A stretch of DNA of 13,541 nt from the IMG/VR virus record IMGVR_UViG_3300029498_000044; one strand, given 5' to 3'. A program made the position numbers and the translations under genes. The DNA comes from a virus. Taxonomy: Duplodnaviria > Heunggongvirae > Uroviricota > Caudoviricetes. Within the stretch, counting starts at the first letter, position 1; the number at the start of each line of letters is the position of its first letter. Shown piece by piece: positions 801 through 12,396 of the stretch. A model generated the notes under the pieces. It was not told the origin of the DNA. It did not search any database and saw nothing but the letters and a program-made list of their open reading frames with translations.

Positions 801-1178
801 TTATTTCGAACAATCAGCATCCATCTCCAATCGGAGATCCAACACCATCAGCATGCCCTCCACTACGCCCTCAGCTTTCTGGAGCATCCTGCCAACCCAA
901 CAATCAGATCGCCCATGCTTACGTGCAAGCGCCATAAAAGTCATGCCGCCGACATAATAGTCCACCAATAAATCATGTAAATCGCTGTTGTTTTTTTTCA
1001 GGCGAGCCATACATTCACAAATGATCATCGCGTCATCGTCACAGCATTGCGGACGAGATCTTACTTTTGAAGGAATTAATCCCTTAAAACCGGCGGCAAT
1101 GGACGACCAGGTCACATCTTCATGATTATTAGCCGCCCATGCCCCCCAACGCTCAAGAACCATCTGAATATCACGCAT
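801..1178 (-). CDS. quuD: Late-gene antitermination protein Q (QuuD-type)
   Basis: Translation [24 protein letters not shown]...[10 protein letters not shown]...LRLEMD matches my recollection of DLP12 QuuD. Start moved from the track's TTG (1193) to ATG at 1178 with GGAG 7 nt upstream. Confidence 0.85.
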
Positions 1179-1195
1179 CAACTTACTCCACAAAA

Positions 1196-2245
1196 TTAGG
1201 CCAGCACACCAATTGCCAGCGCGCGATCGATAAATCGAAAAATCAGCTCCAGTTGGGAGCCATACTTCTCTTCAAATGCCACGGTATCCGTATGCAACTC
1301 GTCGTGATGCTTTCTGCACAAAGGCAACACAAAGAGATCATGTGCTTTGGTTCCCATTCCGCCCTGCCCGTGACCAATCAGATGATGCGGATCGTCGGCT
1401 GGCATACCGCAGCAAGCACACGGCTGTGTCTTAACCCAGCGTGTGTATTTCTCCTTAACCCAACGGTGACGTTTAGGCAGCTTCATGAAAGATTCCGGAG
1501 ACTCTGGATCAACGGTGATGCTTACCACCGTCTTTTCCTGTGATGGGTTTTGTTGCTGGTGGGCGTGAGGCAACGGTGCAAGATTTTTTGTGCGCTGTTT
1601 CAATATGCTGGTGGCGGTCTGCTCTCCCGGTACGATGTCGCTTTCGCGGTACACCGAGCAGTTTTTTTCCGCTGGTAATCCCAGCGAGCGACGTAATACC
1701 ACTTCCGGTAGCGCGTCCGCCACCTGATTGCGGACCGCCCACCAGGATAATTCAGCCAGAGATAATTCACGCTCCTGCGTACCGCTTATTGCGTGACCGA
1801 TGACGTCAATCATCCATGCTGACAGGTTTTGATGAGCAAGTTGCTCGAGTGATTCGGATGTCTGGTCACGCAGCTGGTTGTCGCAGTGCCAGCACAACAC
1901 CATTGCGCCGGTACCATAACGGTGAATGACGGTTTCACTGTGGTGATAATCGCCGTGTGGCCACTGGCAGGATTTAACATGGCGCAGTAACCAATCAGAC
2001 AATGCGCCAGCGCCACCAGCAGCACGAATCACTCGTTCGTCGCTGAAAAATGGCAGTAATGATTTATCCTCCGCCAGCGGCTGGCGAACGGCAGGAACGA
2101 CCCCGGACGGCAGATTACGCATGCTTTTCGGTTCCGGCTCCACCAGTACCCGGGTATTGTGGAATACCGGCATGGATTCACGGCCCGGCTTAACGATCAC
2201 CAGCCCGAGTTCCGGTACCAGAACAGGTCGAAGTAATACCCGCAC
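1196..2245 (-). CDS. ydfU: DUF968 / YdfU-like prophage protein with C-terminal Cys/His-rich (HNH-like) motif
   Basis: 349 aa, same length and position (adjacent to Q) as Qin YdfU. C-terminal motif CACCG...HH...CRKHH. GTG start with GGAGG SD, overlapping the stop of the upstream gene. Confidence 0.8.
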
Positions 2246-2884: not shown

Positions 2885-2905
2885 AAAAAACCCGCCGAAG
2901 CGGGT
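2885..2905 (-). terminator. Rho-independent terminator ending the two-gene cassette
   Basis: Minus strand: stem ACCCGC/GCGGGT with TTCG loop, then a T-run. Lies immediately after the stop at 2910. Shares an identical 20-nt core with 4721-4740. Confidence 0.65.
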
Positions 2906-2909
2906 ATAC

Positions 2910-4016
2910 TCAAACAATCTGGAAAATATTTCTTGGATTTGTAATAGGTCTGTTGATGGAGAACAACTCACGAATTAAATCTTGGCTCAAGCCAGTTTTC
3001 ATAAGAATTCTTAGCCAGGTTGCATCATCCAGCATTTCAATCGCCTCGGCCAGCATGCCGGGTTCTTCAGGGCGCAAAAGTTCATCACCAGGTTCAACTC
3101 TCGTATACCCTCTGGAATTAAGATGCATATAGCCAGTTCTTGCCTGTTCCTGGGTCAATAAGCCTAATGCGCTGGCTCGATAAATACACATTTTAAGGCT
3201 GATTTTCCATCTAAGTTTAAATTCAACCAGAGCATTCCAGTCGAATTGCTTACCTCGTATTCGTGGAAATTCTTTAATGAAAGATAACCTGGGAACTAAT
3301 AAGGCGCTCGAAAAGTGATCGGCTTGTGATTCCGTAAGTTTATCACCTGTCGTTATGCCCTCATGCATTACTAAATGCCCTAATTCATGACCTAAATCAG
3401 AGCGAAATCTACATATGCTTTTTTTAACATTGTTCCTGATGATAACAGGCCTGTTATTGTGAACAGTAAAAGCATCAACACGATCATCGACTCCCGTAAC
3501 ATGCGCAACGATTACCCCTAAACTCTCCGCCAATTTAACCATTGATGATATAGGGCCAAGACCTAAATTCCAGGCACGGCGACAATCTTCTGCCACTCGC
3601 TCAATATCATTCGGAGTAAGTAATTCAGCCCCTGGGTGCTCCGGTATGTTAACGTCAGGAAATTCGATTTCACCTTCAACAGCAGAAATTATAATATTAA
3701 GAATCTCAGCCCTGGCCAATACACTATTAGTCAGCGTTTGAGTCCTGGACTTCTTACTCCGAAAATGGCAGACATCACTTTCCAGAGCGTATTTTCGTTC
3801 AGTAAAAAGAAAACTGGACTTAATCATAAGCGCTGAAGATATTAACTCAAGACATTGCTCCGATGGCCTGCACCCCTTCTCCAGTTTGCTAACGAATTGC
3901 TTTGTCTTGCCAATTTTTTCGGCTAACTCTTCACAAGAAAGCCCAACAGCCATTCTCGCTAGTTTGAGCTTATCACCCCGATACTCAGTGAAGTTATTCA
4001 CCTGATGTTCCATCAC
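2910..4016 (-). CDS. HTH_XRE DNA-binding domain fused to ImmA/IrrE-family (COG2856) Zn-metallopeptidase
   Basis: N-terminal XRE helix-turn-helix (about residues 12-68, LARMAVGLSCEELAEKIGKTKQFVSKLEKG). HEXXH motif H210-E-L-G-H214 at nt 3375-3389. First codon is GTG at 4016 or ATG at 4013. Overlaps the upstream gene by about 20 nt. Confidence 0.85.
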   Translation of the reverse strand: MMEHQVNNFTEYRGDKLKLARMAVGLSCEELAEKIGKTKQFVSKLEKGCRPSEQCLELISSALMIKSSFLFTERKYALESDVCHFRSKKSRTQTLTNSVLARAEILNIIISAVEGEIEFPDVNIPEHPGAELLTPNDIERVAEDCRRAWNLGLGPISSMVKLAESLGVIVAHVTGVDDRVDAFTVHNNRPVIIRNNVKKSICRFRSDLGHELGHLVMHEGITTGDKLTESQADHFSSALLVPRLSFIKEFPRIRGKQFDWNALVEFKLRWKISLKMCIYRASALGLLTQEQARTGYMHLNSRGYTRVEPGDELLRPEEPGMLAEAIEMLDDATWLRILMKTGLSQDLIRELFSINRPITNPRNIFQIV

Positions 4017-4644
4017 TGCTCACATCCAAATCTTTATCCTTCGTACGCCGACGAAGAGGCACCTTATTAATCTCCGCTTCGTCAGGGAGTGTGTTATAAT
4101 CAAGAGGCATAAGCGGCATCGATGCTGTAGATTGATGAGAAACTATACTAATCTGAGCACCATAAGTATTAAATCCAACAAGAGCTACCTCCCAACGAGG
4201 CAGTGTGGACTCTAATTCACCATCGCCCTCTTCGGATAAAAAAGGCTCAGCTATGACTCGCCATGTAATATCTTGCTCAGCCTCAACATCACCAAACAAT
4301 GAGAGCTGCTCATACTCTACTTTATTTCGACGCAGACGATGTTTCTTTTTGGGGTTATTAATGCAATCTTTGGTAAATTGTAGCGGAACTTTATTTAAAG
4401 CAACTACATAGTCCAACCCCTTGGAAATCATCTCAAGGCCAGGAATTGCATCTTCATTTTGAATAAGATGATTTCTGACCCAATCATAAGCCCTTACACC
4501 TTCAGACCAGTTGCTGTCTAATGCGTGCTTATGATAGTACAGCTGCTCAAGTACGTTAGCGATCTCCGCCAACAAGTGGCGAACATAGTTTTCAGCAAGA
4601 TAAGGTTGAAATTCCCAACAAGGAGCTAACTGATTTTCATTCAT
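3994..4644 (-). CDS. Hypothetical 216-aa protein, operon partner of the HTH-peptidase; candidate effector or toxin
   Basis: Long ORF with no motif I recognise. Contains a basic patch KKKHRLRRNK. Its 3' end overlaps the downstream peptidase gene. Weak SD. Confidence 0.7.
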   Translation of the reverse strand: MNENQLAPCWEFQPYLAENYVRHLLAEIANVLEQLYYHKHALDSNWSEGVRAYDWVRNHLIQNEDAIPGLEMISKGLDYVVALNKVPLQFTKDCINNPKKKHRLRRNKVEYEQLSLFGDVEAEQDITWRVIAEPFLSEEGDGELESTLPRWEVALVGFNTYGAQISIVSHQSTASMPLMPLDYNTLPDEAEINKVPLRRRTKDKDLDVSSDGTSGE

Positions 4645-4679: not shown

Positions 4680-4708
4680 ATATTTTCGCATTTTTCTATT
4701 TTTGTCAA
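4680..4708 (-). promoter_or_regulatory. Candidate cassette-specific promoter
   Basis: Perfect minus-strand -35 TTGACA (4703-4708). The -10 is weak (AAATAT or AAAATA at 16-18 nt spacing). Sits between the upstream terminator and the cassette start. Confidence 0.3.
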
Positions 4709-4720
4709 CCAGACTAATGC

Positions 4721-4740
4721 AAAAACCCGCCGAAGCGGGT
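4721..4740 (-). terminator. Rho-independent terminator at the 3' end of the hok transcript
   Basis: Same ACCCGC-TTCG-GCGGGT hairpin plus T-run as 2885-2905, about 70 nt past the hok stop. Confidence 0.6.
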
Positions 4741-4809
4741 TAAGTGCGGGTGCGTTGAGGATGCCTGGCACATCAGAGGTGGCGGGAGATTACTCCCCCG
4801 CCGGGTCTC

Positions 4810-4965
4810 TTACTCCTCAGGTTCGTAAGCTGTGAAGACAGCGACCTCCGTCTGGCCGGTTCGGATTCGTACCTCGCAGAGGTCTTTCCTCGTTACCAGT
4901 GCCGTCACAATGACGGTTAAACAGATGACGATCAGGGCGATTAGCATCGCCTTTTGCTGCTTCAT
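4810..4965 (-). CDS. hokD: Hok-family type I toxin (small membrane peptide, 51 aa)
   Basis: MKQQKAMLIALIVICLTVIVTALVTRKDLCEVRIRTGQTEVAVFTAYEPEE is a canonical Hok/Gef sequence and matches my memory of HokD/RelF. Track ORF 4810..5022 carries a 19-codon upstream extension at the mok-like position. Confidence 0.85.
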   Translation of the reverse strand: MKQQKAMLIALIVICLTVIVTALVTRKDLCEVRIRTGQTEVAVFTAYEPEE

Positions 4966-5169
4966 AGCCTGCTTCTCCTTGCCTTTCGGCACGTAAGAGG
5001 CTAACCTACGTGTGTAGAGCATAGATATGGCCTCAGATTAATGTTAAGCGTCTTGCCGGACGCGTAATGTTAACTGGGGCTTTTCTCTATCTGCCTTTTG
5101 GTGTTCATGCCTGAGACAGATAGCCTCAAGCACCCGCTGCAATTCTACTTAACTCTCCTTTTCCCGCAA
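4966..5169 (-). promoter_or_regulatory. hok promoter and long 5' leader with mok-like start and Sok target
   Basis: Minus-strand TTGCGG (5164-5169), 16-nt spacer, TAGAAT (5142-5147). Leader contains GCTTGAGGCTATCTG...CAGATAG complementary boxes. In-frame upstream ATG at 5022. Confidence 0.5.
5014..5090 (+). ncRNA. Candidate Sok-like antisense RNA (approximate coordinates)
   Basis: Plus-strand TTGCCT (4979-4984), 17-nt spacer, TAACCT (5002-5007) would start a transcript antisense to the mok start and SD. The 3' end is not resolved. Confidence 0.3.
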
Positions 5170-11142: not shown

Positions 11143-11568
11143 TCAATGCACAGCCACAATATTTCCTGCAGGGCCACCACGATTCATCTGGTTGAAACCA
11201 GCGATCGCCACTGCGACAAAATCATCAGCGTCTCTCACCAGTCGTTCCCGCGTCTCCACCAGCTCCCGAAAATAAGCTGAACTGTGGCTGCGCATTCGGG
11301 CCACCAGCAGAGGCGGCATTGCTTTTTCGATCGCTGGTAACAACGCCTGAATTTTTTTAACCGCATCAGGAGTGTCTTTCTCCACCCAGCGGAAAATTTT
11401 CTGGGTATTGCGAGCCAGGGCTTCCGGATGGCTGTCGTCATATAATTCCGGGAACGTCATACCAAGCTCAAAATAAGCCCGGGTTATTTCAGCTGCCGGA
11501 ACTTTTTCACCGTCCGGATGCGCCCAGGCATTCATCGCCATGCGGATGTGCTCATGCCTGATTTTCAT
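11143..11568 (-). CDS. ydaT: YdaT-like regulator (cII functional analog of Rac-type prophages)
   Basis: 141 aa, MKIRHEHI...IVAVH. N- and C-terminal signature and length match Rac YdaT from memory. Sits between the cro-like and O-like genes. Confidence 0.75.
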   Translation of the reverse strand: MKIRHEHIRMAMNAWAHPDGEKVPAAEITRAYFELGMTFPELYDDSHPEALARNTQKIFRWVEKDTPDAVKKIQALLPAIEKAMPPLLVARMRSHSSAYFRELVETRERLVRDADDFVAVAIAGFNQMNRGGPAGNIVAVH

Positions 11569-11827
11569 GAATCAACTCCGATGCATTTGGTGTGTTAGCC
11601 TTGAATCCAACAGGTAAGCCGTCGGTTGGATTCGGGTAAATATCAGGCCGGAGTTCATGAGGTGTAACCTCGAAATTCGTTACTTCAGCAACACGTAATG
11701 CTTTTTCAGGGCTGAATCTTTCATAGCCCCCCAGCACTCGACTTACATGCACCTGAGATAAACCCGTTAGCTTCCCAAACTGTAGCTGGGTGATATGTTT
11801 CTCTTTTAAATAGTCTCTTAAGTTCAT
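11552..11827 (-). CDS. Cro/YdaS-like HTH regulator
   Basis: HTH segment ITQLQFGKLTGLSQVHVSRVL, followed by an ELRPDIYP motif. ATG at 11827 with GAAGG SD (track start at 11833 is TTG). Divergent from the repressor. Confidence 0.75.
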   Translation of the reverse strand: MNLRDYLKEKHITQLQFGKLTGLSQVHVSRVLGGYERFSPEKALRVAEVTNFEVTPHELRPDIYPNPTDGLPVGFKANTPNASELIHENQA

Positions 11828-11857
11828 AGCCAACCTTCTACGTTATGCCTCGAGCAA

Positions 11858-11934: not shown

Positions 11935-12396
11935 ATGAAAAAAACACGCGAAGTGATTGCAACTCCAGAAGCGAGCAAGAATTTAAAAGCCGCATGGAAT
12001 GCAAGAAAAAAAGAGCTGAAGCTGACTCAAGAGCTGGCGGCTGAGTTGTTGGGATTCGAATCTCAAGGCACCGTTAGCCAGTATCTGAACGGCAAGATAC
12101 CGGTAAATACCGACGCTGCGCTAAAATTTGCGGCTCTGTTAAAGGTAAAACCAGAGGACATTCGAGAAGACCTTAAAGACTTAATGAATTATGTAAGATC
12201 ATCAGATACTTATGATGATAACTTTTCAGGCAAAGGATGGAGGCTGGTCAATGAAGAACAGGCAGAGTTACTTAACCTCTTCGAGATTCTACCTGCGTCA
12301 GAAAAAGCCAAACTCCTTAACCAGCTACGTGGACTAAACAAGCTCTACGAGGAAGCCTTCGAGAACATGCTGGCACTAAAGAAACGTAACCAGTAG
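11935..12396 (+). CDS. Prophage repressor, DicA/RacR-like (HTH_XRE, no S24 peptidase domain)
   Basis: 153 aa. N-terminal XRE HTH (LTQELAAELLGFESQGTVSQYLNG). C-terminal ELLNLFEILPASEKAKL resembles the DicA C-terminus. No LexA-type Ser/Lys autocleavage domain. Confidence 0.8.
   Translation: MKKTREVIATPEASKNLKAAWNARKKELKLTQELAAELLGFESQGTVSQYLNGKIPVNTDAALKFAALLKVKPEDIREDLKDLMNYVRSSDTYDDNFSGKGWRLVNEEQAELLNLFEILPASEKAKLLNQLRGLNKLYEEAFENMLALKKRNQ

Follow-up and report, generated by a model that had tools for sequence, protein, structure and literature searches.

Vmi480 (198 amino acids, aa) and Vmi470 (362 aa, with a helix-turn-helix (HTH) domain and a Zn-peptidase) form a toxin-antitoxin pair carried by MGIVmi1, a mobilisable genomic island of Vibrio mimicus (Luo et al. 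2015, PMC4671572). Expressed by itself, Vmi480 kills Escherichia coli, the Vmi470 peptidase alone is harmless, vmi470 cannot be deleted alone, and Vmi470 co-expressed from PBAD abolishes the lethality; vmi480 is also the counterselection marker of pLP11/pLP12 (PMC4671572). Because Vmi470 neutralises from a foreign promoter, neutralisation is independent of repression of the native promoter. RosmerTA systems, for their part, defend against phages, and their delta-rmrA construct could not be transformed (Millman et al. 2022, bioRxiv 10.1101/2022.05.11.491447); their RmrT proteins are diverse toxins partnered with an ImmA-type protease antitoxin (Ernits et al. 2023, PMC10440598). Here we analyse a stretch of viral DNA of 13,541 nucleotides (nt) (IMG/VR record IMGVR_UViG_3300029498_000044, Caudoviricetes), the whole of which we call the window. 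Its open reading frame (ORF) at 3994-4644 very probably encodes RmrT, the toxic half of a two-gene module of the RosmerTA type (Vmi480/Vmi470 family) that forms a moron within the nin region of a lambdoid E. coli prophage. The two genes and their junction are as follows.

3994..4644, minus strand: rmrT, ATG start, 216 aa; soluble toxin-like protein of the Vmi480 / PADLOC PDLC03929 family
2910..4013, minus strand: rmrA, 367 aa, antitoxin-like; N-terminal XRE HTH and C-terminal M78 (ImmA/IrrE) Zn-peptidase
3994..4013, minus strand: end of rmrT overlapping the beginning of rmrA, by 20 nt if rmrA starts at ATG and by 23 nt if it starts at GTG

Two starts are available to rmrA, ATG at 4013 (the RefSeq choice in E. 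coli 042, 367 aa) and GTG at 4016 (368 aa). A first-pass annotation, made from the sequence alone, had described a 216-aa ORF that precedes an HTH-peptidase gene, overlaps it by about 20 nt and leaves it with a weak Shine-Dalgarno sequence. This layout was confirmed: the overlap is 20 nt and, as read from the sequence, a weak GAG alone lies 6-8 nt ahead of the rmrA ATG. The translation likewise contains the basic KKKHRLRRNK patch (residues 98-107) and the acidic C-terminal tail (DKDLDVSSDGTSGE) that the annotation had pointed out. We list the 20-nt overlap as putative translational coupling. By sequence comparison rmrT is a real gene, because length is preserved among homologues at 53-84% identity and because a diverged E. 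coli allele (strain CFSAN004176) shows 18 synonymous and 13 non-synonymous codon changes, which fits a gene under selection.

RmrT matches the PADLOC RmrT model PDLC03929 over its full length (residues 7-209 of 216, E 4.6e-25) and RmrA matches the PADLOC RmrA model with E 6e-105; being co-directional neighbours that are both matched, the two genes constitute a RosmerTA system in PADLOC terms. In Pfam, RmrA carries HTH_3 (residues 17-63) and Peptidase_M78 (residues 177-282), and the HExxH motif of the peptidase is intact (HELGH, residues 209-213). RmrA further matches the PADLOC models capP and capH, as well as NCBIfam antitox_spr1629 with a score of 156, well under the cut-off of 335. RmrT belongs to PHROG 5786 (E 8e-85), a family without known function, and RefSeq lists the proteins of this locus as WP_001004956.1, 'hypothetical protein', and WP_000401168.1, 'helix-turn-helix domain-containing protein'.

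The relation to Vmi480/Vmi470 was established through the published primers. From the primer table of PMC4671572 we deduced the termini of Vmi480 (MTKKPEFY...QKKVSDE), the start of Vmi470 (MIYQAVN) and a 5-bp spacer between the two genes. Scanning a genome collection with the family member P0033 returned one locus, in Vibrio sonorensis, at whose gene boundaries the vmi480/vmi470 primers fall (22/24, 23/24, 22/22, 22/22 and 18/20 matches); the downstream ORF there is 362 aa long and agrees with the vmi470 primers at its start, at an internal site and at its end. A second family member, P0175, has exactly the primer-deduced Vmi480 termini and the reported length of 198 aa. RmrT is 26% identical to this Vmi480-type protein (BLASTP E 1e-15) and 27% identical to P0033 (E 1e-17), and the RmrT profile aligns with the P0175 sequence over 178 columns with an hhalign probability of 97.9%. 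RmrA is 47% identical to the V. sonorensis Vmi470 orthologue over 354 aa (E 1e-123). Because primers, termini and the alignment statistics of both toxin and antitoxin agree, we conclude from sequence that the window pair and Vmi480/Vmi470 are homologous modules.

The two modules have homologous toxins and homologous antitoxins, each starts with the toxin gene behind a promoter of its own, and in each a protein of about 200 aa is paired with one of about 365 aa that has an HTH and a Zn-peptidase. They differ in several respects: RmrT has 216 aa rather than 198, a longer tail and an acidic insert (about residues 137-147); where V. mimicus has a 5-bp spacer between the genes, they overlap here by 20 nt; and the window module sits in a lambdoid prophage rather than in a mobilisable island.

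To define the family, an exhaustive profile search with a hidden Markov model (HMM) was run against 1.84 billion protein representatives (threshold E <= 0.001). It gathered 69 cluster representatives from Proteobacteria, mostly 195-225 aa long, whereas a word-indexed search had found 21 close relatives only, in Enterobacterales and Plesiomonas. Named members come from Vibrio, Photobacterium, Aeromonas, Pseudomonas, Pseudovibrio, Desulforhopalus and Methylococcales. The RmrT model PDLC03929 matched all 60 aligned relatives, while Pfam and NCBIfam scans of RmrT and these 60 relatives returned no match (0/60 in Pfam). HMM searches of RmrT against the sequences of solved structures in the PDB, with narrow and broad profiles, likewise gave chance-level matches only. 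The annotation had called the 216-aa protein an orphan, which the PADLOC match, the PHROG assignment and the 69 representatives contradict; its further statement that no domain is recognisable stands for Pfam, NCBIfam and solved structures, and fails for PADLOC, where the RmrT model is matched. Its proposal that the protein is the toxic or effector partner of the XRE-COG2856 protein gains support from the Vmi480 homology, the Vmi470-like partner and the RmrT/RmrA matches. Where it had allowed for homology to a benign family, the outcome was the opposite, homology to the lethal Vmi480.

The pairing itself is conserved. An overlapping downstream HTH-M78 gene of 359-376 aa was present in 7/7 distinct homologue loci inspected (three Serratia places with one arrangement, Xenorhabdus, and three relatives at about 20% identity), so that it holds from 63% down to about 20% toxin identity; gene overlaps measure 11-20 nt in the homologous loci L003-L007, L009 and L012. 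On the metagenome contigs L009-L012, distant rmrT-rmrA pairs lie outside obvious prophages and adjoin other toxin genes, with a HigB-like pair at one locus and a HEPN/RES-domain protein at another. These surroundings look like small toxin-antitoxin or defence clusters.

RmrT is acidic (isoelectric point, pI, 4.9) with a grand average of hydropathy (GRAVY) of -0.54 and a maximal 19-residue Kyte-Doolittle value of 0.84; hydropathy thus reveals no transmembrane or membrane-anchoring segment. RmrT-D5 of Gordonia phage Kita, by comparison, is membrane-localised and depolarises the membrane (PMC10440598), and a toxin of the Kita type was rejected for RmrT on the hydropathy maximum. We infer that the target is intracellular rather than membrane; nucleic acid is our best guess for it, and a weakly supported one.

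An AlphaFold2 model of RmrT, built from 45 sequences, is of moderate quality (predicted local distance difference test, pLDDT, 68; predicted template-modelling score, pTM, 0.62), and the basic patch and the last ~45 residues are its low-confidence parts. The predicted order of elements is two long helices, three strands, a helix and three further strands. Family-wide conservation is seen at D43, W46, G49, R51, Y53, P87, F90, P98, E110, Q113, W128, R129, E133 and G157. As to mechanism, RmrT could be a divergent nuclease of the PD-(D/E)xK fold that degrades DNA or RNA, which we consider rather unlikely. Strands 80-83 and 86-91 conserve V, I/L, V, P, R/Q and F, and the acidic-x-Lys of PD-(D/E)xK is absent; because it is missing from the expected strands, the endonuclease-like fold is a weak lead only. 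Around residues 187-200 the tail holds a linear motif of moderate conservation (P-E/D-x-V-E-L-x-x-P-x-V-x-x-R/K), a candidate docking site that RmrA could use. A bolder and unlikely combination would make the family an undescribed soluble toxin fold: RmrA would recognise or clip the motif at about 187-200, ClpXP would clear the product, and a phage block of either protease would unleash a nucleic-acid toxin acting through a degenerate endonuclease-like core of D43, E110 and E133.

The architecture of RosmerTA from E. coli OLC-716 resembles that of the window pair, PADLOC calls RmrT and RmrA in both, and the two RmrA proteins are 29% identical over 300 aa (E 2e-35). The verified RmrT of OLC-716 (239 aa), however, is unrelated to the RmrT described here: identity of the two was rejected, since hhalign gave a probability of 0.15% and the OLC-716 protein falls under a different PADLOC model, PDLC03935. 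Because the verified toxin is unrelated, the demonstrated defence was not carried over to the PDLC03929 toxin family.

Another parallel comes from Rousset et al. (bioRxiv 10.1101/2020.05.25.114553), who describe the prophage pair E101_02645/E101_02644 of E. coli E101 and give its identities to Vmi480 and Vmi470 as 33% and 42%, respectively. This pair makes clpP essential, and a T46S change in the toxin suppresses the effect (bioRxiv 10.1101/2020.05.25.114553). Like the window pair it is prophage-borne and has its partner gene downstream of the gene for a toxin that lacks a predicted domain; through the stated identity to Vmi480 it presumably belongs to the same family. The proteins differ (WP_001179380.1 and WP_000481765.1, versus WP_001004956.1 and WP_000401168.1 here), and the clpP dependence and the T46S suppressor are features of the E101 pair, not established for the pair here. 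In transposon sequencing (Tn-seq), rmrA was essential and clpX was essential solely in RosmerTA-bearing strains, and in Streptococcus pneumoniae Clp dependence of RmrT toxins is described (both bioRxiv 10.64898/2025.12.09.693261).

Taken together, the module would work as follows. RmrA would bind, and possibly cleave, RmrT and would autoregulate the cassette promoter through its HTH, and ClpXP would remove free RmrT. Infection by another phage would upset this control and free RmrT, leading to cell arrest (abortive infection) and so to protection of the lysogen population.

Several points weigh against this interpretation. Toxicity and neutralisation are attributed to the window allele by homology, and the identity of RmrT to Vmi480 is just 26-27%. 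Anti-phage activity is documented for RosmerTA systems with unrelated toxins only, namely the OLC-716 RmrT (bioRxiv 10.1101/2022.05.11.491447) and Kita RmrT-D5 (PMC10440598). Neither structure searches nor the model assigned a fold or a target to RmrT, and the link to E101_02645 depends on the 33% identity to Vmi480 stated in the paper. Finally, at the diverged allele of E. coli CFSAN004176 (L014, 395-2128) rmrT is intact and rmrA is annotated as frameshifted. The lesion, loss of 1 nt at nt 587 immediately ahead of an A7 run, leaves the downstream frame open and may stem from faulty assembly; were it genuine, ClpXP or the HTH half by itself would suffice there, and a full-length antitoxin would not always be needed.

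The same frameshift is one argument for reversing the roles, so that the HTH-peptidase would be the harmful partner and the 216-aa protein an inhibitor or sensor. PD-lambda-2 offers a precedent, with a toxic Xre-peptidase that is rescued by an upstream HigB-like protein (PMC9519451). We regard this as highly improbable: of the two Vmi proteins it is the small one that kills by itself, and the peptidase by itself does no harm (PMC4671572), the E101 suppressors map to the small protein (bioRxiv 10.1101/2020.05.25.114553), and rmrA was found essential by Tn-seq (bioRxiv 10.64898/2025.12.09.693261). The insertion sequence and frameshift lesions of other strains (below) also strike the small gene and leave the peptidase gene intact.

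Of the 5426 complete E. coli genomes, 237 contain rmrT and 237 contain rmrA, in nearly all cases with >= 99% identity. Where modules are damaged, the toxin gene is usually the one struck. In E. coli FDAARGOS_1249 (L013, 1695-3254) an IS5 element has inserted into rmrT, in its 5' part, next to an intact rmrA; one E. coli genome has rmrT partly deleted; and in V. sonorensis CAIM 1076 (L008, 3001-4690) the vmi480 orthologue is frameshifted after ~68 codons beside an intact 362-aa vmi470 orthologue. The occurrence of each gene in 237 genomes and these toxin-side lesions lend indirect support to RmrT being toxic and RmrA neutralising it; the frameshifted rmrA annotated in CFSAN004176 is an observation to the contrary.

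The toxin module thus proposed is a self-contained cassette which, as predicted from sequence, consists of its own sigma-70 promoter, rmrT, the overlapping rmrA and a terminator. Its boundaries and promoter are as follows.

4721..4741, minus strand: upstream boundary, terminator hairpin of the hokD unit, repeat copy 1 (terminator scan and direct repeat)
4680..4708, minus strand: candidate cassette promoter, TTGACA at 4708-4703, 17-nt spacer, AAATAT at 4685-4680, and a conserved GCGAAAATAT box
2886..2905, minus strand: downstream boundary, cassette terminator, repeat copy 2 (terminator scan and direct repeat)

A perfect 20-nt direct repeat (AAAAACCCGCCGAAGCGGGT) occurs at 2886-2905 and 4721-4740, and each copy forms a terminator-like stem-loop. 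In phage mEp460 both flanks are joined via a single terminator copy and the cassette is absent from that site; PhiR42_1 and PPompW phages have an empty site like that of mEp460, as judged by matching two-piece hits. Because mEp460-type phages join the flanks through one terminator copy with nothing between, the 1835 bp are an insertion, and the arrangement suggests exchange of the cassette via recombination at the terminators. The G+C content is 0.40-0.43 over rmrT-rmrA versus 0.48-0.55 in the neighbouring prophage genes. The position of the module varies by prophage: this one and that of Xenorhabdus have it in the nin region, and in Serratia it stands between Q and the holin gene. None of the phage records searched encodes RmrT.

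The TTGACA of the cassette lies ~60 nt ahead of the rmrT ATG. Since a consensus promoter scan made no call at 4680..4708, we put the promoter forward by inference; the same TTGACA-17-AAATAT arrangement and the GCGAAAATAT box also precede the Serratia and Xenorhabdus homologues, and the sequence farther upstream is unrelated. The GCGAAAATAT box is a candidate operator, and nothing convincing in the way of inverted repeats that could serve as operators was found in the cassette promoter.

Coming and going at one site in similar phages and changing position among prophages are typical of defence cargo, and both bear on whether the module might be an addiction or stabilisation pair only, one that kills cells losing the prophage and plays no part in defence against phages. 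Vmi480/Vmi470 and the E101 pair are indeed described purely as toxin-antitoxin modules, the PDLC03929 toxin family comes without defence data, and the cassette adjoins another addiction-type locus, hokD/sok. Against this, RosmerTA systems with a homologous RmrA do defend, and addiction and defence are not mutually exclusive; a role confined to addiction therefore appears improbable to us.

The wider setting shows the window to be part of a lambdoid E. coli prophage and rmrT-rmrA to be a moron in its nin region. The remaining features that define this setting are:

11935-12396, plus strand: repressor-like HTH gene
11552-11833, minus strand: YdaS-like HTH gene, facing the repressor-like HTH gene
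11143-11568, minus strand: YdaT-like gene
minus strand: DnaT-domain replication gene, lambda-P-like gene and a run of small nin-region ORFs
4810-5135, minus strand: hokD and sok RNA (sok, Rfam RF01794, 4960-5135, 117 bits)
1196-2245, minus strand: DUF968 gene
801-1193, minus strand: antiterminator Q

This setting, together with the domains of RmrA, raises a further reading, in which the pair would be an ImmR/ImmA-like switch of prophage expression or induction and the 216-aa protein a regulatory accessory. M78 peptidases paired with an XRE HTH control the induction of mobile elements (ImmA/ImmR; PMC10440598), and rmrT-rmrA is prophage-located. ImmR/ImmA, CapH/CapP and the S. pneumoniae spr1629 family do share with RmrA an M78 Zn-peptidase with HExxH and an XRE HTH; in ImmR/ImmA and CapH/CapP, however, HTH and peptidase are split, whereas here they are fused and paired with a separate toxin. 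The prophage moreover possesses an immunity region of its own (repressor/YdaS/YdaT) at a distance of 7 kb, terminators insulate the cassette, related phages lack it, distant homologues stand outside prophages beside other toxin genes, and a homologue, Vmi480, is lethal (PMC4671572). Of all the readings weighed, the switch is the one to which we give least credence.

The pair as interpreted here, a toxin and its antitoxin, already has its catalogue entry, RosmerTA, and laboratories have used a homologue as a tool since 2015, so that its novelty is low. Its value is first one of annotation: the RefSeq-hypothetical pair of the 237 complete E. coli genomes becomes recognisable as a RosmerTA / Vmi480-family module. 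In addition, three literatures are joined, those on the vmi480 counterselection marker, on PADLOC PDLC03929 and, by the paper's own statement, on the clpP-sensitising E101 toxin; knowledge of one should therefore transfer to the others. How a soluble toxin arrests the cell and how the peptidase acts on it are questions that belong to the whole family and not to this locus alone.

Some neighbouring genes deserve mention in their own right. The hokD/sok locus lies directly upstream of the rmrT-rmrA cassette, placing two toxin-antitoxin-type modules back to back in the nin region. The YdaS and YdaT genes (11143-11833, minus strand) occupy the positions of lambda cro and cII; Pfam labels them 'toxins', and in lambdoid prophages these are regulatory positions. 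Beside Q, an ORF at 121-645 on the plus strand encodes a Blc-like lipocalin (Pfam Lipocalin_2, E 7.5e-43) with a lipoprotein-like N-terminus; at a G+C content of 0.42, it may be another moron.

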